A stretch of 64,000 nt of DNA from an uncultured bacterium (lineage in GTDB: Bacteria; Eisenbacteria; RBG-16-71-46; JABDJR01; JAWXBZ01). A program made the position numbers and the translations under genes. The notes under the pieces were generated by a model that saw only the letters and a program-made list of their open reading frames with translations, was not told where the DNA came from and did no database searches. The stretch is from positions 19,023 through 83,022 of the forward strand of contig CAZQVN010000012.1 in the NCBI GenBank assembly GCA_964596775.1, written 5' to 3'. Below are positions 26,086-63,360 of the stretch, one piece after another; the first letter of the stretch is position 1; each line of letters begins with the position of its first letter.

Positions 26086-26161
26086 TGGTGGGCGAAACAG
26101 GGCTCGAACCTGTGACATCTTGCGTGTAAGGCAAGCGCTCTACCAACTGAGCTATTCGCCC
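26086..26161 (-). tRNA. tRNA-Val (anticodon TAC), CCA encoded
   Basis: Reverse complement GGGCGAATAGCTCAGTTGGTAGAGCGCTTGCCTTACACGCAAGATGTCACAGGTTCGAGCCCTGTTTCGCCCACCA. It folds into a canonical cloverleaf: acceptor GGGCGAA/TTCGCCC, D arm GCTC..GAGC, anticodon stem CTTGC/GCAAG with loop CTTACAC, T arm ACAGG-TTCGAGC-CCTGT. Confidence 0.85.
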
Positions 26162-46424: not shown

Positions 46425-48037
46425 TTGAGAAGGACGATGCGCCGGGTTTCCACGGCCGGTCCCGACCGGAAGCGCAGCATGTAGATGCCGGAAGCGAGAC
46501 GGCGACCGGCATCGTCCCTGCCGTTCCAGACGGCTTCGTGCTCGCCGCGGTCGTACGGGCCGTCCGCGAGAACGCGAATCCGGCGCCCGGCGAGATCGTG
46601 GACGGTCACCTCGGCGTGCCCCGCCTCGCGCATCCGCCAGCGCAGCGTCGTGCCCGCGCTGAACGGGTTGGGACTGGGCGGGAGGAGCGCCGGGATGCGG
46701 CCGGCGGCCGGGGGTTCCTCGGGAACCGCCACGACGGAACCGTGCGGAATGAAGTTGAACCCGGAGAGGATCACTTCCTGGTTGGATGCCGGAGCCCCGG
46801 TGATGCGCCACAAGTTGATATGCACCCGCGGCTGTTCAGGGCGCGGGATGTGGGCTCCGGCATAAGTCCAGGAATGTATGAGCGAGCCCGGAGATTCGTC
46901 CCCGGGACCGCCGCGCCAGCTCCGGTACTCCACCTTGTCGGGGAGCCAGCGGAACGCGTGACTCGTGATCTCGCCGTTGCCGAACGTGGCGGCGAAGCGG
47001 CTGATGTTGGCCGGGCCGTCGAAAGGCTGGGCCACGAACTGGCCGATGCTGTTGGCCGGATTGCCCCAGCGGCTGAACTCCACGTCGATTTCGTTGAACG
47101 GGTTCCACCAGAGCCAGGCGGGATCCCAGCAGTGGCCGTACTGCCAGAGAAACAGGCCGAGAACGACCTGCGGGTCGATCAGGTCGAGGCGCCCTTCGGT
47201 CGTGAAGATGTAATCGCCGTAGCCGAGGGCGTCCACGAGCGCCACCTCGGTGCTGTACCAGGATCCGCCGATGTTCTTCACGGTGACGTGCAGGCGCCCC
47301 TGGGGGTCGACCCAGACGGAACCGGAGCCGTCGCTGAACAGGTTCGGGCCGGGACCGTAGTAGCCGGGACCCTTGACCCGCCACGTCCGGCCGCCGAACG
47401 ACAGCGTCCTGCCGCCCGGAAAATCGTTCCACTGGATGGCGGCCAGGGAGGGCGACGTCTTGTGAAATTCCGCGGTGTCGAAGTAGACGTCGGGCACGGA
47501 GGTCCCGGGAGCCTGCAGCACGCCGAGCATCAGGCGGACGGCCACCGTCCCCGACGGAGCCGGACCGCTGGTGACCGTGAATTCCTGGACCTGGCCGGTC
47601 GGCGTGGCCGCGCCTGCCACCGTGTGGGATTCGTAGCTGATGAGCACGCCGCTGGAATTCCGCCACTCGATGTTGAGGATGGCCGCCGACTGGCCGGTCA
47701 GCGGCCTGACGGCGGTATGCCAGCCGTCGACGGACGCGATCCAGCGGTCGCCGGGCACGGAGGCCAGCTGCTGCCAGTAACCGGACACATCCCATCCCCC
47801 GGCGTTCGGGCCGGTGAGGCGGGCGGCTTTCGACCCGTGAACGGCGTTCGGGGAGGACCCGACGCTGCCGAACTGGTTCCATCCGCCGAACACCGTGCCG
47901 GACCCGACGACTTCAAAGCTGGGATTGGCCAGCAGGCACTGCGCTGCGGCCCGCGGGGCGCCGGCCGCAGCAGACAGAACAAGGATCGCACTCAGCGCCG
48001 CGGCGAGGCGGACGATGCCCGGGTTCCCCCTCTTCAA
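46421..48037 (-). CDS. Secreted CBM4_9-like + GH16-like (ExDxE) module protein with T9SS-type C-terminal domain
   Basis: Signal peptide. N-terminal CLLANPSFEVVGSG...GGWN CBM4_9-like module. Central FNEIDVEFSRWG resembles the GH16/XET DEIDFEF active site. The C-terminal ~75 aa (HAEVTVHDLAGRRIRVLADG...GIYMLRF...RIVLLK) matches the tail of the C25 peptidases. Confidence 0.65.
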   Translation of the reverse strand: MKRGNPGIVRLAAALSAILVLSAAAGAPRAAAQCLLANPSFEVVGSGTVFGGWNQFGSVGSSPNAVHGSKAARLTGPNAGGWDVSGYWQQLASVPGDRWIASVDGWHTAVRPLTGQSAAILNIEWRNSSGVLISYESHTVAGAATPTGQVQEFTVTSGPAPSGTVAVRLMLGVLQAPGTSVPDVYFDTAEFHKTSPSLAAIQWNDFPGGRTLSFGGRTWRVKGPGYYGPGPNLFSDGSGSVWVDPQGRLHVTVKNIGGSWYSTEVALVDALGYGDYIFTTEGRLDLIDPQVVLGLFLWQYGHCWDPAWLWWNPFNEIDVEFSRWGNPANSIGQFVAQPFDGPANISRFAATFGNGEITSHAFRWLPDKVEYRSWRGGPGDESPGSLIHSWTYAGAHIPRPEQPRVHINLWRITGAPASNQEVILSGFNFIPHGSVVAVPEEPPAAGRIPALLPPSPNPFSAGTTLRWRMREAGHAEVTVHDLAGRRIRVLADGPYDRGEHEAVWNGRDDAGRRLASGIYMLRFRSGPAVETRRIVLLK

Positions 48038-49446
48038 TCGACCAGCACCATGGTGCGGGACAACCGGCCGCCGGACGTGGTCATGACGTAGCGGTAGATG
48101 CCCGCGGCCGCGCGCGACCCGGCGTCCGTTTCGCCGTTCCAGAGAACGGAGTGCGATCCGCCGTCCATCCGCCCGTCGAGCAGCGTGGCCACCCGGCGTC
48201 CGGCGACGTCGAACACGGAGAGGCGGACGTCATCGGCCCCGTCGAGGCTGAACTCGATCCGGGTGGACGGGCTGAACGGATTCGGACTGTTCTGGCCGAG
48301 CCGGAACGCCACCGGCGGCGTCGTGATCGGCGCGGCGGTGGGATCCACGGAACGGAACGAAAGATCATCCACCCAGACTGCTCCGCCCATCAGCGTCGGC
48401 GAGATGAACAGGATGAACGCCTCCACCGTGGCCGTGCCGGCCGGAGCGATCCCCTGGGTGGCGTGATGCGCCCATTTTCCGAGCGGCGCCTTGTTGTCGG
48501 CGACGACCGTCTCGACCGATCCGACCTCGTCCCCGATCCCGTTGCGGAACACGATGCGGGCCACGGCATAGTTGTCGTTCGTTCCGGCGATCGGGTCCTC
48601 GCGGCAGGTCACGAGCGCGTGCGCGTCCATCCGCCAGGCCGATCCGGGCGCCGCGGCAAACGACTGGAACAGGCCGGACGGCGCATCGGCGACGAACGTG
48701 GAAAACAGCTTGGCGCTTCCGGCCGGCGTCCGCACGGTGAAATTCCGCGCATCGTAGAACACGTTGCCGAACGTGGACCATCCGGACAGCCCGCCGCTGA
48801 AGGACGGGTTCGCGAGCACGTTGGGCAGCGAGGCCGGCAGCGTCTCGCAGAAATTCACGTCGTCGAGGTACACGGCTCCGGGGTCGCAGCCGGGCTGCAG
48901 GAAGAGAAACAGGGCCTCGACGCGCAGGGCGCCGGCCGGGACCGGCGCGGAAACCGTGAAGTGGTGCCACTTGTTGATCGGAGTCGAGTAGTCGCCGATG
49001 ACCACCTCGCTCGCGGAGATTTCCGATCCTCCCGAAGCCATGTTGAAGAAAACGATCTTGGCGATCATGCGGTTGCGGTTGCAGGTGTCCGTACCCGGGA
49101 TCGGATCGGCACCGGACACGAACGAGTAACCGCTCAGCTCGTAGACGCGACCGGACGTCGGCGTGAAGGCCTGCCCGAATCCGCCGACCCGGTAGCCGGG
49201 CGTTCCGGGGCATCCGGTGAACTCGCCGAACGTCTTGGACGCGGCGGTTCCGGAGCGGAAGATGTTGTCGCCGGGTGTGGGCAGGGACAGATTGGGGCCG
49301 CTGCCGAACTTGAACCAGCCGGTGTACGAACCTCCCCCGGTTTCAAACCCGGGATTGGCCAGGAGATTGACGCCGGCGGAAGCGGGCGCGGCCGCGAGGA
49401 ACGCCAGCACTGCGCCCATGCCGGCGGCGATAAGGAATCTCTTCAT
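48034..49446 (-). CDS. Secreted tandem CBM4_9-like carbohydrate-binding protein with T9SS-type C-terminal domain
   Basis: ATG 49446 (GGGAGG 7 nt upstream). MKRFLIAAGMGAVLAFLAAAPASA signal. Two repeats start NLLANPGFETGGGSYTGW and NVLANPSFSGGLSGW. C-terminal NPFSPSTRIEFSL...GIYRYVM...RTMVLVD tail. Confidence 0.65.
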   Translation of the reverse strand: MKRFLIAAGMGAVLAFLAAAPASAGVNLLANPGFETGGGSYTGWFKFGSGPNLSLPTPGDNIFRSGTAASKTFGEFTGCPGTPGYRVGGFGQAFTPTSGRVYELSGYSFVSGADPIPGTDTCNRNRMIAKIVFFNMASGGSEISASEVVIGDYSTPINKWHHFTVSAPVPAGALRVEALFLFLQPGCDPGAVYLDDVNFCETLPASLPNVLANPSFSGGLSGWSTFGNVFYDARNFTVRTPAGSAKLFSTFVADAPSGLFQSFAAAPGSAWRMDAHALVTCREDPIAGTNDNYAVARIVFRNGIGDEVGSVETVVADNKAPLGKWAHHATQGIAPAGTATVEAFILFISPTLMGGAVWVDDLSFRSVDPTAAPITTPPVAFRLGQNSPNPFSPSTRIEFSLDGADDVRLSVFDVAGRRVATLLDGRMDGGSHSVLWNGETDAGSRAAAGIYRYVMTTSGGRLSRTMVLVD

Positions 49447-49552: not shown

Positions 49553-49582
49553 TTGACTTCTCCCATCATGATACACTATGTT
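49553..49582 (+). promoter_or_regulatory. Candidate sigma70 promoter (TTGACT-18-TATGTT) for the plus-strand ABC-ATPase/GH1/GH-fusion operon
   Basis: -35 TTGACT at 49553..49558 and -10 TATGTT at 49577..49582. This is about 45 nt upstream of the GTG at 49629. The -10 overlaps the palindromic operator. Confidence 0.45.
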
Positions 49583-49597
49583 CGGCAATCGAACAAA
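49577..49597. promoter_or_regulatory. Palindromic operator TGTTCG-gcaat-CGAACA (copy 1 of 2)
   Basis: tATGTTCGgcaatCGAACAAAg has 6-bp perfect arms (8 bp with one mismatch) and a 5-nt spacer. It overlaps the -10/TSS. The same half-sites recur at 63286..63308. Confidence 0.55.
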
Positions 49598-49628
49598 GTC
49601 GAAAATGGACCTGTCCGGGAGATGATCC

Positions 49629-50516
49629 GTGACCACCCACACTGGAGTCGACACTCCGCCGCTGCTCGAAGTCCGGGACCTCCGCAAGGAGTTCGTCTCG
49701 AAGGGGCTTTTCAAGCCGGAACGCCGGATTGTCGCCGCCGACAACGTGTCCTTCCGGATCGAGCGCGGCGAGGCCCTGGCCCTCGTGGGGGAGTCGGGCA
49801 GCGGCAAGAGCACGGTGGCCCGGATACTCCTCCGGCTGCTCGAACCGGACGGCGGCTCCATCCTGCTCGACGGAATCGACGTTCTGGCCCGGGAACCGCG
49901 GGGGGCCTCGCTCGGCTACCGCGGACGCGTCCAGATGGTGTTCCAGGACCCGTTCGGCTCGCTGAACTCCGTGCATACCATCCTGCACCACCTCGAGAGG
50001 CCGCTGATCCGGCACGGCCGGACCGGAGCCACGAACCCGTCGCAGACGGTGTCACGGCACGTGGAACGACCGATGAAGCGGCACGGTCGCGGCGCCTCCG
50101 CGGACATCCGGGCACGCGCGCTGGAACTGCTGTCCATCGTCGGCCTTGATCCCGCGGCCGAGTTCATCGACCGGTACCCCTACGAGCTGTCCGGCGGGCA
50201 GCGCCAGCGCGTGGCCATTGCGCGGGCCCTGGCCGTGGAACCCGACCTCCTCGTGGCCGACGAGCCCACTTCCATGCTCGATGTGTCCATCCGCATGGAC
50301 ATCCTGAACCTTCTCGCCCGGCTGAAACGGGACCGGGGGCTGGCCATACTGCTGATCACTCATGACCTGGCCTCGGCACGCTACCTCGCGGAGCGGATCA
50401 TGGTCCTCTACCGCGGACGGATCGTCGAGGAAGGCGCGGCCGCCTCCATCGTGAACGCACCCACCCACCCCTACACGGTGTCCCTTCTCGAGGCGATCGC
50501 CGGAGCGTCGGCGTGA
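49629..50516 (+). CDS. ABC transporter ATP-binding protein (OppF/DppF-like)
   Basis: GTG 49629 with GGGAG 7 nt upstream. Walker A GESGSGKST, signature LSGGQRQR, Walker B LLVADEPTSMLD, H-loop ITHDL. Confidence 0.85.
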   Translation: MTTHTGVDTPPLLEVRDLRKEFVSKGLFKPERRIVAADNVSFRIERGEALALVGESGSGKSTVARILLRLLEPDGGSILLDGIDVLAREPRGASLGYRGRVQMVFQDPFGSLNSVHTILHHLERPLIRHGRTGATNPSQTVSRHVERPMKRHGRGASADIRARALELLSIVGLDPAAEFIDRYPYELSGGQRQRVAIARALAVEPDLLVADEPTSMLDVSIRMDILNLLARLKRDRGLAILLITHDLASARYLAERIMVLYRGRIVEEGAAASIVNAPTHPYTVSLLEAIAGASA

Positions 50517-51919
50517 CCCGGCGCCGGTTTCCCGAGGGCTTTCTCTGGGGGGCGGCCACGTCCGCGCCGCAGATCGAAGGAAGTCCCGACGCCGGGGGGC
50601 GCGGCGAGTCGATCTGGGACCGGTTTGCCGCCACGCCCGGCCGCATCGAGGACGGTTCGGACGCCCGGGTCGCCTGCGATCACTACAACCGCTGGCGCGC
50701 CGACATCGGCCTGATGCGCTGGCTGGGGATCGGCGCGTACCGGTTCTCCATCGCCTGGCCGCGCGTCCTTCCGAACGGTGACGGCGCGGTCAACGAACGC
50801 GGGCTCGACTTCTACGACCAGCTCGTGGACGGCCTGCTCGAGGCCGGGATCGACCCGTTCGTGACGCTCTATCACTGGGATCTCCCCCAGGCACTCGAGG
50901 ACCGGGGGGGCTGGGGCAACCGCGACACCGTGGACGCCTTCACGGCGTATGCCGAGGCGGTCGTGGCCCGCCTCGGCGACCGGGTGCGGAACTGGACCAC
51001 CCACAACGAGCCGTGGTGCATTGCCGCGCTCGGACACGAGGAGGGGGTCCACGCGCCGGGGCACAAGGATCCGGCCCTTTCGCTCTCGGTGGCGCATCAC
51101 CTGCTGCTCTCGCACGGCCGCGCGGTCGAACTCATCCGGGCCCGCCGCCCCGACGCCCGCGCCGGAATCGTCCTGAACCTGACCCCGGCCCATCCGGAAA
51201 CGGAAGGCTCCGCGCGAGACATCGACGCGGCCCGCCAGTTCGACGGACTCTTCAACCGCTGGTACCTCGATCCCCTGTTTCACGGCCGCTACCCGGCGGA
51301 CGCCGTCAACGACCGGGTGCGTTACGGCCATCTCGAGGATCACGATCTTCCGTTCGTGCTGCCGGGAGACATGGACGAGATCCGGACTCCGCTCGATTTC
51401 CTCGGCATCAACTACTACAGCCGCGTCGTCGTCCGCGCCGGAGACGACGGACGCCCCCGGGCCGTTCCCGGAGCGCCGGCCGAGGAACTGACCGACATGG
51501 GCTGGGAGGTGTATCCGCAGGCGCTCGACCCCCTCCTCGTCCGGATCCACGAGGAGTACGGCCCTCCGGAGATCTGCATCACGGAAAACGGGGCCGCCTA
51601 CACCGACGCCCGCGACGAGCACGGGCGGGTCATCGACCGGCGCCGCATCGAGTACTTCCGCGGACACCTTGCCGCGGCGCACCGGGCGATCGAGGCCGGC
51701 GTGCCGCTGTCCGGATACTTTGCCTGGTCGCTGCTCGACAATTTCGAATGGGCGCACGGTTACGCAAGGCGGTTCGGCCTGTTCGACGTGAACTACAGCA
51801 CGCAGGAACGCGCGGCGAAGGAAAGCGCGTTCTGGTACCGCGACGTGATCGCCGGAAACGGGTTCGACGACCGACCCGCGTCCCGCCGCGCCGAACACTC
51901 TTCGAGGAGGTTCCCTTGA
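50513..51919 (+). CDS. GH1 family beta-glucosidase
   Basis: GTGA overlap with the upstream stop. N-terminal FPEGFLWGAATSAPQIEG. Acid/base TTHNEPW. Nucleophile ICITENGAAY. 468 aa. Confidence 0.9.
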   Translation: MTRRRFPEGFLWGAATSAPQIEGSPDAGGRGESIWDRFAATPGRIEDGSDARVACDHYNRWRADIGLMRWLGIGAYRFSIAWPRVLPNGDGAVNERGLDFYDQLVDGLLEAGIDPFVTLYHWDLPQALEDRGGWGNRDTVDAFTAYAEAVVARLGDRVRNWTTHNEPWCIAALGHEEGVHAPGHKDPALSLSVAHHLLLSHGRAVELIRARRPDARAGIVLNLTPAHPETEGSARDIDAARQFDGLFNRWYLDPLFHGRYPADAVNDRVRYGHLEDHDLPFVLPGDMDEIRTPLDFLGINYYSRVVVRAGDDGRPRAVPGAPAEELTDMGWEVYPQALDPLLVRIHEEYGPPEICITENGAAYTDARDEHGRVIDRRRIEYFRGHLAAAHRAIEAGVPLSGYFAWSLLDNFEWAHGYARRFGLFDVNYSTQERAAKESAFWYRDVIAGNGFDDRPASRRAEHSSRRFP

Positions 51920-54900
51920 GCTTCATCCGGACAGGATCTGCCGGCGGCCGCGCGATGCTGGCCGCCATGGTGATGACGACACTGCTGGCGGCGGCCCCGG
52001 CCTCCTCGGCCGAGGACAGCGCATCCGCCGCGGTTGCGAAGGTGGCGGTGGTCACCGACGGCCAGGGAAGCCGGATCCAGGTCGACGGCCGGGACATGAT
52101 GATCTACGGCATGAACTGGGACTGCTTCCCCGTCGGCACGAACTACACGTTCGACCTCTGGTCGCAGCCGGACGCGATCATCGAGGAGATGCTGGCCCGC
52201 GACATGCCGCTCCTCCGGGAAATGGGGGTCAACGCCATCCGGCTCTACGTGGGCGTCCCCCCCCGCTGGGTCCGGTTCATGTACGAGCGCTACGGCATCT
52301 ACACGATCCTCAACCACCCGATGGCCCGCTACGGCTTTCTCCTCGACGGCGTCTGGGTGGCATCGGTGGATTACGCGGACGAACGACTGCGCGAGGCGGT
52401 CAAGGCCGAGATCCTGGCGGTCGTCGAGGAGTTCCGGGACACGCCGGGCGTGCTGATGTGGCTGCTCGGCAACGAGAACAACTACGGGCTCACCTGGACG
52501 TCCGCGGAAACCGAGGCGCTTCCGGAAGGGGAGCGGGACGGAGCACGGGCCCGCAAGCTCTATTCGCTGTTCAACGAGGTGACGAAGGGGGTCAAGGCCC
52601 TCGACCCGAACCGCCCGGTGGCCATCGCCAACGGCGACGTCCAGTACATCGACATCATCGCCGAGGAGTGCACGGACATCGACGTCTTCGGCACGAACGT
52701 CTACCGCGGTCTCTCGGCGCGCGACCTCTTCCAGGTCGTCAAGGACAAGCTCGGCGTTCCGGTGTTGTTCACGGAGTTCGGAGCCGACGCGTTCAACGCC
52801 CGCGAGATGCGCGAAGACCAGGAGACGCAGTGCCGCTATCTCGTCGCCCAGTGGGAGGAGATCTACGAGCAGTCGAGCGGCAAGGGTCGGGTCGGCAACG
52901 CCGTCGGCGGCCTCGTCTTCCAGTGGACGGACGGCTGGTGGAAGTACAAGCAGGAGGAGCGGCTGGACGTGCACGACACGAACGCGTCCTGGCCGAATGC
53001 CGGTTACCCCGAGGACTACGTGGCCGGCGCGAACAACATGAACGAGGAGTGGTGGGGCATCACCGCGAAGGGGCCGACGGAGCTCAACGGCCTGTACAAG
53101 GTCTATCCGCGGGCCGCCTACTACGCGCTCAAGAGGGCGTTTTCCCTCCCGGCCTACGCGCCGGGCACGGACATCGAGGCGATCCGGGATCACTTCCGCA
53201 CGATCTCCGCCGCGGCGGCCGCTCTCGAGGCCCGCGGTGACCGCGCGGCCCTCGTGGCCGAGCAGCTGTCGCGCGTCCGCCTGTCCGGGCTCCGCCTCGA
53301 GTTCGAAACGTATTCGACCGGCGGCACCGGCATCACCACGCCCGAGGCATCGGGCGGCGCCGGCGGGGCCTACCCCTCGTTCCGGGGTTTCGACCAGATG
53401 CAGTCGTTTTATGCCGCACTCGAGGCGAAGCCGGCGGAAAACGTCACCGGGACGGTCACGATGAACGTGCTCGGCAGCGTCCCGGCCAATCCGATCGACG
53501 AGATCTTCTATGAAAACCGCGGGAGGCCGGTCAGCGTGGAAACCGGCGGGACGCAGGCGCTCGCGCTCGAGGACATCGAGCGGGTCAAGGTGTACCAGGC
53601 CGGCGTGTCCTGGGACGACACCCACTTCCTGCTCGACGGGTTCTACCGCACCGGTCACCTGCACTGGGCGTACGAAGGCGATTTCTTCGGCCTGTACCGC
53701 GAGGCGTACTACGGCGACAACATCGACATCTACAACGGCGTGGCCCCGGTCGGCCTGGAGTTGACCGGCAAGCGGCAGTTTTCGGGCCTCAAGCTGGCCA
53801 TGGGACCGGAGCTCTGGTGGGGCGCGAACCCGGCGGTGTTCCTGAAATACAACCGGCAGATCGGGTCGATCGCGGCCACCGGCATCTACCAGGAGGACAT
53901 CGCCGAGAAGTCGGGAGCGGCCAGCTCCACCGCCATTCCGGTGCCGCCGACGCGGAAGGCCACGCTGCAGCTGGCCACGCGGCGCGGCCTGTTCGGCCTC
54001 GAAGTCGGAGGCATCTGGTCCGGCCAGACGAAGGTCGGCGACCCGTTCGAGGTCGTCGACGACACCGGAGACGGCACCCTCCTGCTCCAGGACGAGGTGA
54101 AGGGCTCCGACGCCTTCGGAGCCAAGGCCAAGCTGACGTTCCAGAAGGGGCGCTGGAACTGGTACGGACAGGCCGCGTACATGGGCGTCGTGGCGGACGC
54201 GGGCCCGACGACGATTCCCACGTTCACCGGATGGACGCTCAAGGACTCGGGCTCCGGCAACCAGGCCAACGTCCTGACCGGCCTGGCCGTGAACATGGGC
54301 CATTTCCAGGTGGCGCCGAACTTTCTCTACCAGAAGCCGCTCGTCGGCCCGCTCCCCTTCGATCCGGACGGGCGGTTCTTCGCCCGCAACGTCATCGACG
54401 ATCCGTTCGCGGTGCGCGGCAACCGGGAAACCGTGGGCACGGAGCTCCTGTTCACGTTCGATCCGACGCCGGCCACCTGGTTCTGGATGTGGGACAATGA
54501 CGTGCGCGAGGACGCCCGTTTCGCGGCGAGCCTGGGCTGGACGCTGCGCCACCTGCCGACGACGCAGGACGGGGCGCTCTACGTGTCGGCGGACGGCATC
54601 ACGTTTCCGTTCCTGTCGGCCACGCCCCCGCGCGACCTCTGGGAGGTCAGGAGCCGCATCGTGTCCCGCATGAGCCCGACCACCCGCCTGGTGGCCCACA
54701 TCTACGGGGGGACCGCGGAGCCGAACGGCGACGACCCGCGGCTCCTCAAGCGGTTCGGCGCCGATGCGCGGCTGGCGGTCGAGTCGATCGCGTTCGAGAC
54801 GTTCGTCAAGATCAACGACTTCGGTCCGTACGACTACCATCGCGACTTCAACCTGACGTTTCCGGTCCAGCTGATGGGCGACCTCTCGCACACGCTCGGA

Positions 54901-55053
54901 AACCCGCGCTGGTTCAACTTCGCGCAGACGAAACTCGGCGTCCGGGGCACGTGGAGATCGCTCGACGATTTCTCGCCGCGCTACGCGCCGGAACTCGGCA
55001 CGACGAAGAGCAACGAGTGGGAGATCCGGACCTACCTGCACCTGGGGCTGTAG
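51916..55053 (+). CDS. Secreted clan GH-A TIM-barrel glycoside hydrolase fused to a ~700-aa C-terminal beta-rich domain (possible outer-membrane beta-barrel), 1046 aa
   Basis: TTG 51916 (AGGAGG 5 nt upstream) overlaps the GH1 stop as TTGA. Signal peptide MSFIRTGSAGGRAMLAAMVMTTLLAAAPASSA. Catalytic-pair pattern WLLGNENNYG (acid/base NE) and VLFTEFGADAF (nucleophile E). The C-terminal half is Gly/Tyr/Trp/Thr-rich with alternating hydrophobic patterns and ends ...WEIRTYLHLGL. The earlier part of the track ORF (51013..51915) is an out-of-frame overlap with the GH1 gene and was discarded. Confidence 0.6.
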   Translation: MSFIRTGSAGGRAMLAAMVMTTLLAAAPASSAEDSASAAVAKVAVVTDGQGSRIQVDGRDMMIYGMNWDCFPVGTNYTFDLWSQPDAIIEEMLARDMPLLREMGVNAIRLYVGVPPRWVRFMYERYGIYTILNHPMARYGFLLDGVWVASVDYADERLREAVKAEILAVVEEFRDTPGVLMWLLGNENNYGLTWTSAETEALPEGERDGARARKLYSLFNEVTKGVKALDPNRPVAIANGDVQYIDIIAEECTDIDVFGTNVYRGLSARDLFQVVKDKLGVPVLFTEFGADAFNAREMREDQETQCRYLVAQWEEIYEQSSGKGRVGNAVGGLVFQWTDGWWKYKQEERLDVHDTNASWPNAGYPEDYVAGANNMNEEWWGITAKGPTELNGLYKVYPRAAYYALKRAFSLPAYAPGTDIEAIRDHFRTISAAAAALEARGDRAALVAEQLSRVRLSGLRLEFETYSTGGTGITTPEASGGAGGAYPSFRGFDQMQSFYAALEAKPAENVTGTVTMNVLGSVPANPIDEIFYENRGRPVSVETGGTQALALEDIERVKVYQAGVSWDDTHFLLDGFYRTGHLHWAYEGDFFGLYREAYYGDNIDIYNGVAPVGLELTGKRQFSGLKLAMGPELWWGANPAVFLKYNRQIGSIAATGIYQEDIAEKSGAASSTAIPVPPTRKATLQLATRRGLFGLEVGGIWSGQTKVGDPFEVVDDTGDGTLLLQDEVKGSDAFGAKAKLTFQKGRWNWYGQAAYMGVVADAGPTTIPTFTGWTLKDSGSGNQANVLTGLAVNMGHFQVAPNFLYQKPLVGPLPFDPDGRFFARNVIDDPFAVRGNRETVGTELLFTFDPTPATWFWMWDNDVREDARFAASLGWTLRHLPTTQDGALYVSADGITFPFLSATPPRDLWEVRSRIVSRMSPTTRLVAHIYGGTAEPNGDDPRLLKRFGADARLAVESIAFETFVKINDFGPYDYHRDFNLTFPVQLMGDLSHTLGNPRWFNFAQTKLGVRGTWRSLDDFSPRYAPELGTTKSNEWEIRTYLHLGL

Positions 55054-55057
55054 GCGG

Positions 55058-55076
55058 TCCCGGGGCGCTTCCGGGA
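55058..55076. terminator. Hairpin TCCCGG-ggcgctt-CCGGGA between convergent genes (possible bidirectional terminator, no U-tract)
   Basis: 6-bp stem with 7-nt loop, centred in the 38-nt gap between the + gene ending at 55053 and the - gene ending at 55092. Confidence 0.3.
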
Positions 55077-55091
55077 GATTCCGCCCGCGGC

Positions 55092-56060
55092 TCAGCGCTC
55101 CGGCGCCTCCGCCACATGGCACGCCGCGGCGTGACCGGTACCGAACGTGCGCAGCTCCGGCCGCGACTCGCGGCAGCGCTCCTCGACCAGCGGGCAGCGC
55201 GGGTGAAAACGGCAGCCGGCCGGCGGGTTCACGAGCGACGGGGGTGAGCCGGGAATGCTCACCGGCACCACGTCTCCCTTGACCGAAGGAAACGCCTGGA
55301 GCAGTCCCTTCGTGTACGGGTGGTGCGGCTCCTTCCGGAGCGCCGCCACCGGCCCGACCTCCACGAGGCGGGCGGCGTAGAACACGGCCACCCGGTCCGA
55401 CACCGACAGCATCCGGGCCAGGTCGTGGGTGATGAACATCACCGCGAAGCCGACCTCCTTCTGCAGGGCGCGGATCCGGTTGAGGATGTCCCGCTCGACG
55501 ACGACGTCGAGCGCGGTGGTCGGCTCGTCGAGGATCACCAGCGACGGCCTGAGCGCCAGCGCCAGCGCGATCCCCACCCGCTGCCGCATCCCCCCCGACA
55601 GCTGGTGGGCGTACGCGTCCAGCCGGTCCACGGGGATGTCGACCATGTCCAGCAGTTCGCGGGCCCGGGCGCGGGCGGCGCCGCCGGACGACACTCCGTG
55701 CGCCTCCAGCGTGTCCACGATCTGTTCGCCGACGGTGATGACCGGGTTCAGCGCATCCATGGCGCTCTGGAAGACCATCGAGATCCGGTTCCAGCGGATG
55801 GCCCGGAGTCCCGCTTCATCGAGGTCGAGAATGTTCTTCCCCTCGAACCGCACCGTGCCGCCGGAGATCACCGCGGGCGGCGGAAGGATGCGCATCACCG
55901 CCTGGGCCAGCGTGGACTTTCCGCTCCCCGACTCCCCGGCCACGCCGAGGATCTCGCCGGGCAGGAGATCCAGCGACAGGTCGTCGATGGCGCGCACCGG
56001 CCCCCGGTCGGTGATGTAGTCCACGTTCAGCCCGCGGATCGACAGGAGCGGCTCAGCCAC
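55092..56060 (-). CDS. ABC transporter ATP-binding protein (OppD/DppD-like, with C-terminal oligopeptide-ABC extension)
   Basis: Walker A GESGSGKST, signature LSGGMRQR, Walker B LVILDEPTTALD, ITHDL. C-terminal CxxHPRC Cys motif typical of the OppD family. Confidence 0.85.
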   Translation of the reverse strand: MAEPLLSIRGLNVDYITDRGPVRAIDDLSLDLLPGEILGVAGESGSGKSTLAQAVMRILPPPAVISGGTVRFEGKNILDLDEAGLRAIRWNRISMVFQSAMDALNPVITVGEQIVDTLEAHGVSSGGAARARARELLDMVDIPVDRLDAYAHQLSGGMRQRVGIALALALRPSLVILDEPTTALDVVVERDILNRIRALQKEVGFAVMFITHDLARMLSVSDRVAVFYAARLVEVGPVAALRKEPHHPYTKGLLQAFPSVKGDVVPVSIPGSPPSLVNPPAGCRFHPRCPLVEERCRESRPELRTFGTGHAAACHVAEAPER

Positions 56061-56988
56061 GATCCACCACCACCGGCGTCGAGCGCGACGGCTCCTGCCC
56101 GCGCTTCCTGAGCCACGCTCCCCACGCCCGCTCCAGCTGCAGGCGCGGGTTCGTGATCTCGTCGAAACCCGAGTTCAGCATCGTCAGCGCGAACCCGACG
56201 AGCGCCACGCAGAACCCGGTCGGCGCGAACGTCCACCACGCGCCGGTCAGCAGCGCGGAATCGTTCTGCGCCCAGTAGAGATTCGTGCCCCAGGTCACCG
56301 AGGACACGTCGCCGAGGCCGAGATACTCGAGGCCGACCTGGGCGCCGATGGCGTACACGGTGCTGCCGATCACCTGGGCGACGATGAGGCTCGTCATCGT
56401 GGGGAGGATCTCGCGGGTGATGATGCGGAAGTTCGACTCCCCGGTGACGATCGCCGCGGCGACGAAATCGCGGCGCCGCTGGGCCAGCGTCTGGGCCCGC
56501 ATCACGCGGGCGTTCCAGGCCCAGCCGGTGACCACGAGAACGAGGCCGAGCGTCAGCGGCCCGGACGGCAGGTAGGCCGCGATCACGATGGCCAGGGGAA
56601 GGCCGGGAATGACCAGGAACACGTTGAACAGCAGCGACAGGAGCCCGTCGACCCGCCCGCCGAAGTATCCGGCGGCGACGCCGATGAGCGCCCCGATCAG
56701 GACCACGATCAGGCCGACGCTGAAGCCGAGCAGGAGCGACGTCCGGGTGCCGGCCACGAGCTGGGCCAGCACGTCCTGCCCCTGCCCGGTCGTGCCGAGC
56801 CAGTGCTCCGCGGACGGGGGCGACAGCGGAATGCCGACCAGCGCGCCGGGGTCGCCGACGAACAGCGGGCCGAACGCGGCGATCAGGACGAACACGAGGA
56901 GGATCGCGGCGCCGATCGACGCCTTCCGGTCGCGGCGGATCGCCTGCAGCCACGACCCGATGCCGGTGGCCTTCGCGGAGCCGGTCAT
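56053..56988 (-). CDS. ABC transporter permease (OppC/DppC-like)
   Basis: ATG 56988 overlaps the upstream stop as ATGA. About 6 TM segments. The ABC permease EAA-like region ...AAIVTGESNFRIITREILP... is present. The upstream part of the track ORF is R/G-rich and was trimmed. Confidence 0.8.
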   Translation of the reverse strand: MTGSAKATGIGSWLQAIRRDRKASIGAAILLVFVLIAAFGPLFVGDPGALVGIPLSPPSAEHWLGTTGQGQDVLAQLVAGTRTSLLLGFSVGLIVVLIGALIGVAAGYFGGRVDGLLSLLFNVFLVIPGLPLAIVIAAYLPSGPLTLGLVLVVTGWAWNARVMRAQTLAQRRRDFVAAAIVTGESNFRIITREILPTMTSLIVAQVIGSTVYAIGAQVGLEYLGLGDVSSVTWGTNLYWAQNDSALLTGAWWTFAPTGFCVALVGFALTMLNSGFDEITNPRLQLERAWGAWLRKRGQEPSRSTPVVVDRG

Positions 56989-57968
56989 TCGCCGGAATCC
57001 CGGGTGCGGGGATCGAGCCAGATGTAGACCATGTCGACGAGCCAGTTCGCGCCGAGCACCGCGAGCGTGATCACGAGGAAGATCCCCTGCATCAGCGGAT
57101 AGTCCTGGTTCCGCACCGCCTGGACCAGCAGGTAGCCCTGGCCGGGATAGGAAAAGACGATCTCGGTGAGCAGCGACCCGCCGAGCACGTAGCCGAGCGC
57201 CATGCCGAAGCCGGTGACGGAGGGAAGCAGCGCGTTCCGGGCCGCGTAGCGCAGGACGACCCGCGACGGGGACAGCCCCTTGGCCCGGGCCAGGTTCACG
57301 TAGTCGGCGGAGAGAACGGTGATCATCGTGTTGCGCATCGACAGGAGCCAGCCGCCCAGGGTGACGAGGACGACGGTGCCCACCGGGAGCGCGGCGTGGC
57401 GGACCACGTCGGCGAGGAACACCGCCGAGAACCCGGGCGTCAGGTCGTCGCCGTAGGCGTGGCCGAGCGGAAACCACCCGAGCGTGAAACCGAACACGTA
57501 GAGCGCCACCATCGCCAGCCAGAAGTAGGGAAACGCGCCGACGAACACGAGGACCGGGGGCAGCACCGTGTCCAGCCAGCCGCGCCGCCACCAGGCGGCG
57601 GCCACGCCGAGCAGCGTGCCGATCACGAAACTCAGCACGACCGCGGTGCCGGCCAGGAAGATCGTCCAGACGAGGCCCGACCCGATCACGTCGACCACCG
57701 GCGTCGGAAAGTAGGCCACCGAGATGCCGAGATCCCCCCTCAGCACATGGGCGAGATACTGGAAGTACTGTTTCCAGAGCGGAGCCTCGGTCAGGCCGAA
57801 TGTCTGCCGGAGGGCGTCCAGCGCCTCGGGCCCGAGGCGCCCCTTGAACCGCGCGAACAGCGCCGTGGCGGGGTCACCGGGCATGAGCCGCGGCAGGAAG
57901 AAGTTCAGGGTCAGCGCCGCCCAGGCGGCCACCAGGTAGAACCCGAGACGGCGGAGCAGAAACCTCAC
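56985..57968 (-). CDS. ABC transporter permease (OppB/DppB-like)
   Basis: GTG 57968 overlaps the SBP gene stop (GTGA). MRFLLRRLGFYLVAAWAALTLNFFLPRLMPGDP is the typical OppB N-terminus. Six TM segments. Confidence 0.8.
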   Translation of the reverse strand: MRFLLRRLGFYLVAAWAALTLNFFLPRLMPGDPATALFARFKGRLGPEALDALRQTFGLTEAPLWKQYFQYLAHVLRGDLGISVAYFPTPVVDVIGSGLVWTIFLAGTAVVLSFVIGTLLGVAAAWWRRGWLDTVLPPVLVFVGAFPYFWLAMVALYVFGFTLGWFPLGHAYGDDLTPGFSAVFLADVVRHAALPVGTVVLVTLGGWLLSMRNTMITVLSADYVNLARAKGLSPSRVVLRYAARNALLPSVTGFGMALGYVLGGSLLTEIVFSYPGQGYLLVQAVRNQDYPLMQGIFLVITLAVLGANWLVDMVYIWLDPRTRDSGE

Positions 57969-59646
57969 GGCGCCTCCGTCTTCGGCACGAGCGACGTGAG
58001 CACGAGCAGGCATTCCCCGCGGTCGAACTTGTTCGGGGACGGATCGGCGTACGGATTGTCGCGCGAGGGAAAGCCGTCGAACCGGCGCGTGTTGTACTCG
58101 GCCCACGACGGGTTCGGGTACAGCGGAATGGCCGGCACTTCGGCGGCGAAGACCGCCTGCAGGTTGTCGACGAGACGCCGCTGCTCCGCGGGGTCCGGCT
58201 CGCGCTCGAACGCCAGCAGCGCGGCATCCGCGGTCGGACTGCCGTAGCGGTGCCAGTTCGCGCCGGACACCTCGCCCGGCGGCTTGACCGTGGCGGTGGA
58301 CATCAGCGTGCGGTAGAAGATGTACGGCGTGGGGCCCTCGAAGGACCAGCCGAGCGTCAGGTCGAAGTTCCCCTCCTGGACGCGCTGGAACCAGGCGCCG
58401 AAGTCGTAGGTGCGGACGGTCGCGTCCACGCCCGCCTCCGCGAGGCCGCGGGCGATCACCTGCGCCGCGCGGACCCAGTCGGACCAGCCGGAGACGGTGA
58501 GGATTTCATACCGCCACGGCGTTCCGTCGGGCAGCGTGCGGAAACCGTCCGCCCCCCTCCGGTATCCCGCCGCGTCGAGGATCGCGTTGGCGCGCTCCAG
58601 ATCGTGACGCACCCAGTCCGCCGTATCCGCCACCGTCTCGTTCCGCCACGCGGAGTACGCGTCGGAGAGGGCCGTGGCATCGGCCGGCCGCGAGTAGCGG
58701 TAGCAGGCCACGTCGACGAGAAGGTCGCGGTCGATGGCCATGCTGAGCGCCTTGCGCACCTGGATGTCGTCGAACGGCGCCCGCGTCGTGTTCGCGTACA
58801 GGAAGACGGTGCTCCCGGTCAGCGGGAACCAGTAGTGGTGATCCTCGGGGTTGCGGTCGCGGTACACGCGCTCCACCGCGGGAATGAAGTTCCCGGCCCA
58901 GTCCACCTCGTCGAAGACGAGGGCGAGATTCGCCCGGTCGTTCGACGGGTAGGCCGGAAAGCGCAGCGCGTCGAAGCGCGGCACCCCGGGCTGCCAGTAG
59001 TGCGGATTGCGACCGAGCTCGAAGAACTGGTTCTTGAACACCCGGACTTCCGTGAACGGCCCGGTGGCCACCGGATTCTCGTTGGGGAAGGCCACCGGGT
59101 CCTCGATGAGGCTCCAGACGTGCTCCGGCACGATCTGCGAAGCAGCGACCTCGTCGAACCCGGGGATGTAGACCCGCTGGAACCGGAACTCCACGGTCGT
59201 GTCGTCGGGCGCCGAGACGCTCTCGAGAAAGCTCCACACGGCGCGGCGGTCCAGCGCCGGGTGCCGGCGCATCAGGTCGAACGTGAACGCCACGTCGGCG
59301 GCGCCGAACGCCTCCCCGTCCGACCAGCGAACGCCGCGGCGCGTCGTCAGGCGGAGCACCCGGTTGTCCTCCCGCCAGAGGTGCCCGGTGGCCAGCCAGG
59401 GCACCTGTTCCGAGGTGACGCTGTTGAAGACGAACAGCGGCTCGTACACGCCGGCCATGGTCGGCCAGCGCGCCGCCGAAGCGGTGGACAGCGGATTGAA
59501 GTTGCGGACCCAGGAGGCGTGCTGTTCCTGCGAGACGACCAGGACGCCCAGCGGAGGTTCCGGGGGCTTGCGCACGCAGGCCGGCCCGGCGAAGCCGAGC
59601 GCGATAAGGACGGCGAGAATCCGGCTCATTCCGCGGGCGGCCCGGT

Positions 59647-59650
<4 letters not shown>
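57965..59650 (-). CDS. ABC transporter substrate-binding lipoprotein, family 5 (Opp/Dpp-like; probable oligosaccharide binder by context)
   Basis: ATG 59650 overlaps the GH16 stop (ATGA). Lipobox LIALGFAGPAC. Family-5 SBP length (561 aa) and conserved ...YEPLF..., ...GTPWRYEIL... blocks. Confidence 0.8.
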
Positions 59651-60491
<841 letters not shown>

Positions 60492-60495
<4 letters not shown>

Positions 60496-61742
60496 CGAGC
60501 TCTCGCGCCCGCCGCGGCCGGAAACAGCGACGGGTCCGACAGCGCCGCCTCGAGCACGAGTGTGGCCGCGCCCACCGCGGAAGCCTGCGGGCCGAGCCGG
60601 CTGATGAGTATTTCCGCGGCGGCCACGGAACTGACCAGGGAGCGATGCTTCACGGTTTCCCGCAGGGGATCGAGCAGCGTATCGCCGAGTCGGGCCAGGC
60701 CGCCTCCGAGAATGACCCGGGCCGGATTCATGAGATTCAGGAGGCCGGCCACGGCGATACCGAGATGCTCCGCGGCCTCGCCGGTGAGCTTGAGGGCGAG
60801 CGGGTCGCCGGCCAGGGCGGCATCCTCGATCCCCGAGATCGTGACGGGTCGTCCGGCGAGGCGGCTTTCCGGAAACTCCGCCAGGAGCCGGCGGGCCCGC
60901 TCCTCCAGCGCCGGTGCGCCGACGAACGTGGCCAGGCATCCGCGGAGCCCGCAGAGACAGGGCCGCCCGCCCGGATCGATGGCCATGTGACCGATCTCGC
61001 CGGCCACTCCCGCGGAACCGCGGTAGACGTCGCCGCGGATGACGTGACCCGACCCGATTCCGGTGGCCAGCTTGATGTAGGCGAAGTCCTCGACGCCCTG
61101 CCCCGCGCCCCACCAGCGCTCGGCGAGGGCGCCGAGATTGGCGTCGTTGTCCACGAAGTGCGGAACGCCGTACCTTTGCGACAGGAGGCCGAGCCCGCTC
61201 TTCCCCTTCCACTCCGGCATCACGATTTCCGAAAGGTCGTCGGGGTGCAGCGGATCCACCGGGCTCGGCACCGCGACTCCGATTCCCACGAGGTTCTTCC
61301 GGGCCACCCGCGCCGAAGCAAGGACCGCGTCGCAGAGGTCGACGATCAGCCTGCGGGTTCCGTCCGGGTCGGAGCGGACGGGATGAGCGCGGAGTTCCCA
61401 GGCCACGACCTTGCCGCGAAGATTCGTGAGGGCCACGCCGACATGGGCCGCCCCCATCTCCACGCCGACGAGGAAACAGGCATCGTCCTGGAATTCGAGA
61501 ACGATCGGCCGCCGCCCCCCGCGCGACTCCCCCGCCCCGACTTCCGCCACGAGCCCGGTGGGAAGGAGGGCATCGATCACTCCGGAAACCGTGGAGCGGG
61601 ACAGGCCGGCGGCGCGGGCGATGTCGGCCCGGGAAATCCGCTGTTCCCCCCATATGAGCCGAAGGACCGGATGGATGAGCGGCGCCGGCCGGGAAAAGTC
61701 CTCGTGCCGGTCGTTGCCCCGGATGACCGAGGCCCCCTTCAT
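60492..61742 (-). CDS. ROK family transcriptional regulator (NagC/XylR-type: N-terminal HTH + sugar-kinase-like domain)
   Basis: HTH ISRADIARAAGLSRSTVSGVIDALLPTGLV. ROK glycine-rich region VGVEMGAAHVGVAL. Zn-binding motif HMAIDPGGRPCLCGLRGCLATF. The start is set at the internal ATG (MKGASVIRGND), about 61742 in the track frame. My manual count placed this ATG 1 nt higher (61743), so the start coordinate is +/-1. The 106-codon R-rich upstream extension was discarded. Confidence 0.75.
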
Positions 61743-61798
61743 GAGAGCGGTTCCCCGCGGTGATTCTTCCGGTTCATGCCGCGGACATCCTTTCGTCG

Positions 61799-63160
61799 TT
61801 ACCGGTGGAAGTAGATGTTGTCGACGAAGATCGTCTTTCCGTCGCCGGCGATGATAATCTGCGCCATGTGCCCCCGTGAAATCAGCCCGGTGAACGCCGT
61901 CAGCGGGATGTCCAGGGAAGCCCAGCGGCCCGAAGCATACGGCGGCGTGGACGCGGCATCCAGCGTCAGCTCGTGCTCGTGGTCGGGAGCCCCTCCGAAC
62001 GTGCCGTCCTCGCCGAAGTCGACGAGCTTGACCTTGAACACCGAACCCTCGGTGCCCCACACGTCGATGTGGAAATGGGTCATGGCCGACGCGTCGATCG
62101 TCGCGTTCCCGAACTCGATCCCGGCAAAGACGAGGTTCGTGTAGGCCTTCGTGTCGTTGCCGGCGATCTTCAGGTCGGCCACGTCGGCCTGGTCCCAGGT
62201 GGCCGACCAGGTGTCCACGGGCACGGCGGCATAGCTGTTGCTGTACAAGGCAATGACGTTACCCGCGGGGAGCGTGGGCGCCGGCGCCGCCGTCGGGGGC
62301 ACGGCGCTCGTGTTGAGCGTGACCGTGCCCGACACCGGCACGGCGCCGAGCAGCGCGGTGATCATGGCCGTTCCTCCGCCGACGACCTGGATCGACCCGT
62401 TCCGGACGACGGCCACGTCCTCGTTCGACGACAGGAACGTGAAGTATCCCGGCTGGTGCCCGATCGTCCGGTCGGTTCCGGCAACGCTGAACACCGTGCG
62501 CGTCCCCTCCACGGTTACGGTGGCCCCGACGAACCCTCCGGCCGTGCGGGTGGTCATGGACGGCCGCGGGTTGGAAATTATGGTTACGGTTTCGAACTGG
62601 ATCTCGTCGAACCAGATGTCGTACGACGCGGCGCCCTCCGGACCCTCGGCAAAGAAGAACAGGCCGCGCTCCGCGGACAGCCTCTCCGGCAGCGGGATGG
62701 GGATCACGTACTTTCGCCAGGTCGTGGTGAGCGCGATCGCGCTCTGGCTGGCCTCGTACTTCGATGTTCCGGTGTTGTCGTTTCCGAGCCCCGCGACATC
62801 GAGGACGGCCGCCTTGCCGGCCTTGGCCCAGAAGGTGAGCGCGTTGTAGGAGGACAGGTCGCGCGCCGGCCGGGTCGTGAACGCCCCCCCGGCATAGCCG
62901 CCGGTGGTGCTCCCCGGGGCGGGAACCGTCACCTTGAGCGATGCGGATCCCTGGTAGCGCTCGTTCGTGTCGATGGACACGGCATCCAGCCGTGACCCCT
63001 GGAACGCCTGGAAATCGAGCCCCCCTTCGAACGCGTCGAGAAAGACGACGGGATTCGAGTCGAGCGGCACGGGCTGGAGGCCGGAAATGTCCCGTTCGCA
63101 GCCGGCGACGCAGAGAATCGCCGCAACGGCGGCCGTTCCTGTCATGTGTCTACGATTCAT
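61799..63160 (-). CDS. Surface lipoprotein with two CBM-like beta-sandwich modules (candidate glycan-binding protein)
   Basis: ATG 63160 (GGAGG 4 nt upstream). MNRRHMTGTAAVAAILCVAGC lipobox. Two modules: ...ALTFWAKAGKAAVLDV...YDIWFDEIQFE and ...THFHIDVWGTEGSVFKVKLVDFG...IFVDNIYFH. The track's upstream 155 codons were discarded. Confidence 0.55.
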   Translation of the reverse strand: MNRRHMTGTAAVAAILCVAGCERDISGLQPVPLDSNPVVFLDAFEGGLDFQAFQGSRLDAVSIDTNERYQGSASLKVTVPAPGSTTGGYAGGAFTTRPARDLSSYNALTFWAKAGKAAVLDVAGLGNDNTGTSKYEASQSAIALTTTWRKYVIPIPLPERLSAERGLFFFAEGPEGAASYDIWFDEIQFETVTIISNPRPSMTTRTAGGFVGATVTVEGTRTVFSVAGTDRTIGHQPGYFTFLSSNEDVAVVRNGSIQVVGGGTAMITALLGAVPVSGTVTLNTSAVPPTAAPAPTLPAGNVIALYSNSYAAVPVDTWSATWDQADVADLKIAGNDTKAYTNLVFAGIEFGNATIDASAMTHFHIDVWGTEGSVFKVKLVDFGEDGTFGGAPDHEHELTLDAASTPPYASGRWASLDIPLTAFTGLISRGHMAQIIIAGDGKTIFVDNIYFHR

Positions 63161-63285
63161 CCCGCCTCCGGTGTTGAAGCGACGGCCCCCCGAAGGAGCC
63201 GGGCCTTTCGAAACCGCCCGTGCCCCCCTCGTCGCATCACCCATTCGCGACCCTTTGGCCGGGCACGCCGGACGGCTCCCGCCAT

Positions 63286-63308
63286 CTTTGTTCGATACAC
63301 GAACAAAG
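63286..63308. promoter_or_regulatory. Palindromic operator CTTTGTTCG-ataca-CGAACAAAG (copy 2 of 2)
   Basis: Perfect 9-bp inverted repeat with a 5-nt spacer, about 126 nt upstream of the 63160 start. It shares the TTGTTCG-N5-CGAACAA core with the site at 49577..49597. Confidence 0.55.
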
Positions 63309-63360
63309 TTAGGGGAACCGGGGAGATCTGTCAAGCGGACAGGATTGCGCCGATCGCGGG

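Follow-up and report, generated by a model that had tools for sequence, protein, structure and literature searches.

What switches on the genes for beta-1,3-glucan use in an uncultured member of the Eisenbacteria? The question is raised by a 64,000-nt stretch of contig CAZQVN010000012.1 (GenBank assembly GCA_964596775.1, positions 19,023 to 83,022 of the forward strand; here called the window). In this one 64-kb piece of genome, with ~68% G+C, two promoters of a single glycan locus carry the same palindrome, and a gene for a ROK-family regulator lies in the operon behind one of them. Judged from sequence comparisons, both palindromes are likely to be operators of one sugar-responsive repressor, most plausibly the 416-aa ROK protein encoded at 60492 to 61742 on the minus strand, which would then control its own gene as part of an autoregulated laminarin regulon.

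Site 1 is the 25-mer ACTATGTTCGGCAATCGAACAAAGT at 49575 to 49599 (23-bp core, 49576 to 49598; center, 49587). It is made up of TATGTTCG-GCAAT-CGAACAAAG at 49577 to 49598 and lies 42 nt 5′ of the GTG start of a gene for an ATP-binding cassette (ABC) ATPase. Site 2, at 63285 to 63309 (23-bp core, 63286 to 63308; center, 63297), reads ACTTTGTTCGTGTATCGAACAAAGA on the minus strand, is made up of CTTTGTTCG-ATACA-CGAACAAAG at 63286 to 63308, and is found 137 nt 5′ of the ATG start of a gene for a lipoprotein with a carbohydrate-binding module (CBM). When TTGTTCGN5CGAACAA was searched on both strands of the window with up to two mismatches, these two sites were the only matches (0.11 expected), and none of 100 shuffled sequences reached two matches; a 21-mer with up to three mismatches again returned sites 1 and 2 alone. 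The inner core GTTCG-N5-CGAAC by itself was not enriched in the window (7 matches versus 5.6 expected), so the signal resides in the full-length palindrome. With a 25-bp position weight matrix built from orthologous sites, sites 1 and 2 scored 38.2 and 34.8 bits, respectively, while every other position in the window fell below 12 bits and the top score over 20 shuffled windows was 10.4 bits. An earlier note on this DNA had claimed that two promoters of one glycan locus share an operator; the search and the scores bear this out, and within the 64 kb the motif is confined to those two promoters, with no scatter over unrelated positions. The palindrome that the note described also stands, but at a greater length than was given there, namely 23 to 25 bp, with CTTTG/CAAAG ends and CGG/CCG inner triplets. 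A dispersed repeat of the repetitive extragenic palindromic (REP) or miniature inverted-repeat (MITE-like) kind was rejected, there being two copies only in 64 kb and both of them on promoters. The Cheo box of LexA, CGAAC-N4-GTTCG, was rejected as well; the arms in the window stand in the reverse order and the spacer is 5 nt.

Each palindrome is merged with a promoter. At P1, on the plus strand and in front of the ATPase operon, a consensus scan returned a −35 box TTGACT (49553 to 49558) and, after an 18-nt spacer, a −10-like TATGTT (49577 to 49582) within the left arm of site 1. This is the same TTGACT-18-TATGTT promoter that had been proposed to carry site 1 over its −10 box; CACTAT, at 49574 to 49579, is an alternative −10 hexamer. 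P2, on the minus strand, consists of a −35 box TTGACA (63329 to 63334), a 17-nt spacer, and a −10-like TAACTT (63306 to 63311) whose last four bases are the operator's first bases, so that TTGACA-17-TAACTT runs on continuously into the operator's TGTTCG. The consensus scan passed over P2 because its −10 element matches at just 3 of 6 positions. This promoter and the gene map agree in placing site 2 upstream of an operon for the CBM lipoprotein, ROK, a member of glycoside hydrolase (GH) family 16, and ABC transporter components, as had been proposed. The −10 hexamer thus overlaps the first operator bases at both promoters, and the fusion of operator and core promoter recurs in ~70 genomes. An operator that lies over the −10 box and the predicted start, 3′ of TTGACA, is positioned as would be expected for a repressor acting by exclusion of RNA polymerase.

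Related loci were collected in a one-genome-per-species scan with an alignment of 30 ROK orthologues. The scan yielded 80 loci (1.22 Mb) that carry a ROK orthologue at 62 to 70% identity; these were labeled mostly as Eisenbacteria and Krumholzibacteria, with some Gemmatimonadota, “Fibrobacteraceae,” and unclassified entries. Gene order is conserved, with genes for the CBM lipoprotein, ROK, GH16, and the transporter, convergent genes for a large glycosidase (GH-big) and a GH1 enzyme, and a divergent set that encodes a FlgD-tail protein, GH149, and a second FlgD-tail protein; the transporter genes are absent from the Krumholzibacteria-type loci. Allowing up to three mismatches, we obtained 101 motif matches in the 80 loci versus ~1 in shuffles, and 72 of the 80 loci were positive. 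All 63 loci that include the region 5′ of the CBM-lipoprotein gene have a site there (63 site calls, with two each in L042 and L045), and 23 further site calls, in 22 to 23 loci of the Krumholzibacteria type, fall upstream of the GH1 gene among the 24 loci that have that region. Most of the 15 remaining matches lie in front of locus genes, such as a FlgD-tail gene or, where the lipoprotein gene is absent, the ROK gene. The 10-kb flanks of the Eisenbacteria-type loci end before the equivalent of site 1, and four loci (L081 to L084) were therefore fetched via homologues of the ATPase. All four have ACTATGTTCG-N5-(C/T)(G/A)AACAAAGT before the ATPase, GH1, and GH-big genes, as in the window, and an exact TTGACA −35 box is found at the site 1 equivalent in L081, L083, and L084. 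No other regulator gene recurs in the loci with a ROK orthologue. The idea of a dedicated regulon, put forward on the strength of the window alone, gains from these comparisons, in which both sites are kept beside ROK orthologues in ~70 genomes.

The promoters are conserved together with the sites. An exact TTGACA stands 5′ of 60 of the 63 orthologous sites on the CBM-lipoprotein side (A sites), with the distance identical in 48, in the arrangement TTGACA-17-(C/G)ATACT, where ACT forms the first three operator bases. On the GH1 side (B sites), the same hexamer precedes 21 of 22 orthologous sites, 20 of them at one distance, and the block TACACTATG is invariant, as is the block ATACACTATGTTCG around the P1 −10 element across orthologues. 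The promoter side of site B is always TATG and never TTTG; the simplest reading makes the base part of the −10 hexamer (CACTAT or TATGTT). In three loci, two operator-like sites ~150 bp apart were observed 5′ of the CBM-lipoprotein gene: L042 (5371 and 5518), L045 (6938 and 7086), and L025 (~6763, with a weaker second site). The upstream copy in these pairs is a TATG-type site with TTATAG in front of it, and the pairs could represent a second promoter or NagC-like double operators.

Among the orthologous sites, the full element is a 23- to 25-bp palindrome, A-CTTTG-(T/A)T-CGG-N3-CCG-(A/T)A-CAAAG-T. Several of its positions lie outside the search pattern and are nevertheless kept, including C/G at ±11 (87% and 99% of sites) and G/C at ±2 (77% and 79%), and the outer CTTTG/CAAAG bases are nearly invariant. 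Where the arms of the 82 distinct orthologous sites differ, they do so on one side only, with TT, TC, or TG at ±5, AA or CA at ±6, TT at ±9, and GG at ±11. Arm complementarity is only 55 to 59% at ±5 and ±6, and no compensatory pair was found in the 82 sites. One-sided, noncompensatory variation of this kind indicates that a protein recognizes the element as DNA and makes a role as a structural stem unlikely. We regard the element as almost certainly a functional protein-binding operator.

Public metagenomes were also scanned with the motif itself (CTTTGNNCGGNNNCCGNNCAAAG), and 120 matches were read; matches below 30 bits are uninformative. Of the 49 matches at 30 bits or more, 33 have a locus-gene homologue within 3 kb, versus 1 of 72 weaker matches. 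A 35-bit match on L106, a contig with 72% GC, reads ACTTTGTACGGTGCCCGAACAAAGG (2879 to 2903) and lies directly 5′ of a xylose-isomerase-like gene; it may be a related operator of another ROK-type regulator in a different lineage, or a chance match. On L170, a match stands beside an open reading frame (ORF) with a weak ROK domain, no helix-turn-helix (HTH), and no similarity to the window regulator, and this match was not used as evidence. The loose pattern also picked up a REP-like, near-perfect palindrome of ~80 bp (...aatggggacagatctatttttcCTTTGGACGGnnnCCGTCCAAAGgaaaaatagatctgtcccc...), which is a different element and not this operator. This longer palindrome is intergenic and was seen on contigs with ~63 to 65% GC (L095, L100, L104, L108, L113, L119, L128, L134, L155, and L173).

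Which protein reads the operator? The product of 60492 to 61742 matches Pfam PF00480 (ROK) at 182.2 bits (cutoff, 22.9) over residues 92 to 398, with phmmer matches to ROK structures. An N-terminal winged HTH, the domain by which ROK repressors are told from ROK kinases, is found at residues 26 to 65 (MarR, 24.5 bits against a cutoff of 24.6, plus HTH_24), and residues 24 to 114 align with the DNA-binding domains of Lmo0178, XylR (4IJA), and Mlc. The wing, SRGGRRP, occupies residues 73 to 79, and its GGR is invariant in 30 orthologues. Invariant in orthologues, too, is CLCGLRGC at residues 262 to 269, of the CxCGxxGC type that we take to be the ROK zinc signature, and the sugar-site motifs VDNDAN and GEIGH are present. 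Over its full length the protein resembles the ROK repressors Lmo0178, VC2007, and Mlc, with the wing aligned to STGGRR and SGGRKP. Orthologues hardly vary in the recognition helix (LSRSTVSE) or in the wing (GGRRP). There are more than 3,000 ROK homologues in all, the closest of which (65 to 76% identity) come from “Candidatus Eisenbacteria”/Eiseniibacteriota and related metagenome-assembled genomes.

These features agree with what is known of the family. The GGR/GRP wing motif is general to ROK repressors, and NagC and Mlc operators extend to ±11, where the GGRR wing of NagC reads C/G (PMC4288165). All seven ROK regulators of Thermotoga bind 23-bp palindromes (PMC3553997). The window operators, with 23 bp and C/G at ±11, and the GGRR wing of the window protein fit this precedent, and a palindrome of the size, symmetry, and promoter position of a ROK operator is kept beside the ROK gene in related loci. 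The wing also varies with the DNA: an altered promoter-side flank accompanies a GGRPP wing in 11 of 13 cases versus 13 of 51 for GGRRP (P = 1.6e-4; Fisher's test, phylogeny ignored), which is suggestive of binding by ROK. The ORFs scanned (~27 to 64 kb) yielded no second DNA-binding regulator, their remaining products being housekeeping proteins, a Ser/Thr kinase, and TPR proteins; over this range, the description of ROK as the only regulator gene of the locus is correct. We consider it likely that the ROK protein binds the operators.

In the switch that we propose, a ROK dimer would bind the 23-bp palindrome CTTTG-NN-CG-N5-CG-NN-CAAAG. The palindrome starts within the −10 hexamer and would span the transcription start, and ROK bound to it would block RNA polymerase; from the promoter sequences, repression by promoter occlusion is probable. 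The output of P2 would be the CBM lipoprotein, ROK, GH16, the binding protein, the permeases, and an ATPase, which would bring ROK under its own control, and that of P1 would be the second transporter ATPase, the GH1 beta-glucosidase, and the large glycosidase. The sugar domain of ROK would be occupied by a product of beta-1,3-glucan degradation (glucose or laminaribiose/laminari-oligosaccharide), and the sugar-bound protein would leave the DNA, so that both operons would be induced together. Glucose or laminaribiose is a tentative choice of effector, with somewhat short of an even chance of being right. More doubtful still is a broader proposal, in which the ROK-operator pair would be the conserved beta-1,3-glucan master switch of the Eisenbacteria and Krumholzibacteriota, responding to laminari-oligosaccharide and not to glucose, with a wing that coevolves with the outer operator bases, which are also the −10 box.

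Other explanations of the palindromes place the function in the nucleic acid itself or give ROK a different role. An inverted repeat could act as an RNA or DNA hairpin, either as a site 2 terminator for the preceding TPR gene or as a 5′ mRNA stability or attenuation hairpin. No T run follows either site, however, and a terminator scan came back empty, even though site 2 lies 53 nt 3′ of the stop codon of the upstream gene on the same strand. The divergent promoter region around site 1 leaves no upstream gene whose transcript would need terminating. The transcribed repeat does fold as a 9-bp stem with a 5-nt loop, and the site 2 leader folds slightly better than shuffles (z = −2.06), but among the 82 distinct sites, which lack compensatory changes, pairing is lost at ±5 and ±6 in 41 to 45%, and the element keeps a fixed register with the −35 box. 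An Rfam scan of the window returned only a tRNA and no family matching the operators. We therefore hold a hairpin to be extremely improbable. It is also quite improbable that ROK binds the site as an activator or dual regulator. Relatives of the kind of NagC and Mlc can activate some promoters, and the paired sites ~150 bp apart upstream of the operon in L025, L042, and L045 would suit such a role; a site over the −10 box and predicted start, 3′ of a consensus TTGACA, has the geometry of occlusion and not of recruitment.

A further possibility is that the operator is genuine but is bound by a regulator of another family (LacI, GntR, or CRP type) encoded elsewhere, with ROK being only a coregulated sensor or kinase-like protein. 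ROK binding is inferred, only 64 kb of the genome is in view, and the operator is without the invariant TT/AA of NagC/Mlc sites (±5 and ±6), all of which leave some room for such a binder. It is nevertheless unlikely, since the site is linked to a winged-HTH ROK gene in ~70 genomes in which no second regulator recurs, the 23-bp length and the C/G at ±11 together with a GGRR wing fit a ROK operator, and the HTH and wing are nearly invariant in the ROK orthologues, which would be needless in a protein that does not bind DNA. Several observations nonetheless weigh against the ROK protein as the repressor of both promoters. The connection between protein and operator rests on linkage and family precedent, and a second regulator or further targets may lie elsewhere in the genome, beyond the 64 kb in view. 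Covariation between recognition helix and operator yields nothing, as LSRSTVSE is essentially invariant and the test is thus powerless, and the association between wing and flank may reflect shared ancestry or promoter drift, with the flank doubling as the −10 hexamer. Known ROK operators differ in sequence: the TT/AA of NagC/Mlc is variable here, and the operator of Thermotoga BglR (AATTTCTTTCTGAGGAAGATAGA) is unrelated to the present one (CTTTGTTCGATACACGAACAAAG), with no common arm sequence. Finally, 16 of the 49 high-scoring metagenome matches have no recognizable locus gene nearby, and the pattern alone is not fully specific; these matches lie on short contigs, inside unrelated genes on low-GC contigs, or beside other genes.

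The genes under the proposed ROK control were called by third-position G+C, and their frames were checked by eye. The site 2 operon, on the minus strand, begins with the lipoprotein (61799 to 63160), which has a weak CBM11-like domain and an orthologue directly 5′ of ROK in most loci. ROK is followed by a GH16 endo-beta-glucanase (laminarinase-like) lipoprotein (59647 to 60495), a family 5 (Opp/Dpp-type) solute-binding protein (57965 to 59650), two ABC permeases (56985 to 57968 and 56053 to 56988; BPD_transp_1 in orthologous loci), and, as the last gene, an OppD-like ABC ATPase (55092 to 56060). Start and stop codons overlap at the junctions of this operon except at the first, where the lipoprotein and ROK genes stand 56 nt apart. 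The site 1 operon, on the plus strand, begins with a second, OppF-like ABC ATPase of 295 aa (49629 to 50516), which is followed by a GH1 beta-glucosidase (50513 to 51919; Pfam, 530 bits; TIGR03356, 606 bits, above cutoff) and ends with a 1,045-aa secreted protein with a GH2_C-like TIM barrel (51916 to 55053), which is kept beside GH1 in related loci. There is thus one Opp-type transporter with two ATPases, one in each operator-controlled operon, a split that is also present in L081, L083, and L084 and that makes coregulation of the two operons functionally necessary. The OppF-like protein is shorter than its closest homologues (295 versus 335 to 375 aa) and is missing most of the C-terminal oligo_HPY domain, and its stop codon overlaps the GH1 start; the gene may be truncated or rearranged.

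Divergent from site 1, a minus-strand operon (42903 to 49446) encodes two proteins with FlgD_ig and type IX secretion system (T9SS) sorting tails (48034 to 49446 and 46421 to 48037) and a GH149 beta-1,3-glucan phosphorylase (42903 to ~46400), an ORF without a Pfam hit that matches NF058639 at 1,389.8 bits (cutoff, 1,150). The GH149 identification fixes the substrate of the locus as beta-1,3-glucan, and the locus as a whole is, from its predicted gene products, a beta-1,3-glucan (laminarin-type) utilization system. The T9SS type A tails of the products of 46421 to 49446 and of their homologues suggest export of glucan-binding or -degrading proteins via type IX secretion. This divergent operon belongs to the locus, and site 1 may or may not control it as well; a conserved minus-strand promoter for it was searched for around site 1, and none was found. 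In L083 (2465 to 3529) and L084 (2003 to 3070), the divergent operon includes a GH17 gene, of which the window has none, and locus content varies around a conserved core. Farther upstream in the window, a tRNA gene (26089 to 26161, minus strand; Rfam, 75 bits) lies in a stretch of ~2.4 kb (25.1 to 27.4 kb) in which no ORF has coding-like third-position G+C.

No paper in the literature that we searched connects laminarin use, or this regulator, with Eisenbacteria or Krumholzibacteria. The earlier note had called the operator-regulator pair previously undescribed, which is true of this sequence and this lineage but not of the kind of system, given that BglR and NagC/Mlc are known. The sugar switch that the sequence comparisons describe is of an ordinary sort, though well supported, and its definition is new for the Eisenbacteria/Krumholzibacteria lineage; our understanding of how ROK repressors act is unchanged by it. 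Its value lies in offering a concrete candidate regulator-operator pair for Eisenbacteria and Krumholzibacteriota, phyla that are known almost wholly from metagenomes and have few or no cultured members, and in joining ~20 kb of genes (for GH16, GH1, GH149, the Opp-type transporter, and T9SS-tailed binding proteins) as one coregulated system. With the 25-bp motif, metagenomes could be screened for such loci and for additional members of the regulon. The cassette, TTGACA followed after 17 nt by a −10 element that merges with the operator, is nearly invariant, compact, and inducible, and it might be transferred to a host. Should the master-switch proposal prove true, no transcription factor regulon would have been defined earlier for the Eisenbacteria and Krumholzibacteriota, and the operator would be a sequence tag for the laminarin loci of these lineages in metagenomes.

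Compared with known ROK systems, the window regulator is closest in sequence, among solved structures, to Lmo0178 of Listeria monocytogenes (PDB 5F7P, 5F7Q, and 5F7R; E = 1.3e-42 over residues 24 to 400). Both have the same N-terminal domain, and Lmo0178 is likewise a ROK repressor, with an STGGRR wing; the relation is distant, however, and the sugar pathway is different. The ROK-type XylR of Firmicutes, such as that of Anaerocellum bescii, has the 23-bp operator tagtttgtttaataaacaaacta (PMC12285236). Its operator resembles ours in being a 23-bp palindrome with TTTGTT/AACAAA arms beside sugar catabolic genes, with xylose as the effector, but the arms are 5 nt apart in XylR and 9 nt apart here, and the XylR operator is without the inner CGG/CCG triplets. 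Escherichia coli NagC and Mlc share with the window system a winged HTH joined to a ROK domain and a 23-bp quasi-palindrome that reaches out to ±11 (Brechemier-Baey et al. 2015, PMC4288165). In place of their TT/AA, the invariant positions of the window-type operators are CTTTG at ±7 to ±11 and CG at ±3 and ±4; the substrate is different, and the window has no paired looping operators. The NagC and Mlc models are the best NCBIfam hits of the ROK protein, but at 206 bits against a cutoff of 650 (NagC) and 160 bits against 530 (Mlc), and an equivalog of either was rejected.

The closest functional analogue is BglR (TM0032) of Thermotoga maritima, whose operon presumably also holds a GH16 laminarinase and an Opp-type ABC transporter. 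BglR is an autoregulating ROK repressor of a laminarin/beta-glucoside operon (Kazanov et al. 2013, PMC3553997), where it acts through a single 23-bp palindrome near the promoter; binding was seen in electrophoretic mobility shift assays and is relieved by glucose and cellobiose (PMC3553997). The window sites do not match the BglR motif, and the two are thus not the same regulator-operator pair. BglR belongs to another phylum, and the window system is set apart from it by the proposed control at two promoters, by the division of the ATPases between operons, and by the presence of a GH149 phosphorylase and of T9SS-tailed proteins. As with BglR, the ROK gene lies inside the beta-glucan operon, with a 23-bp palindrome at the promoter through which, in the window, it would be expected to regulate itself.

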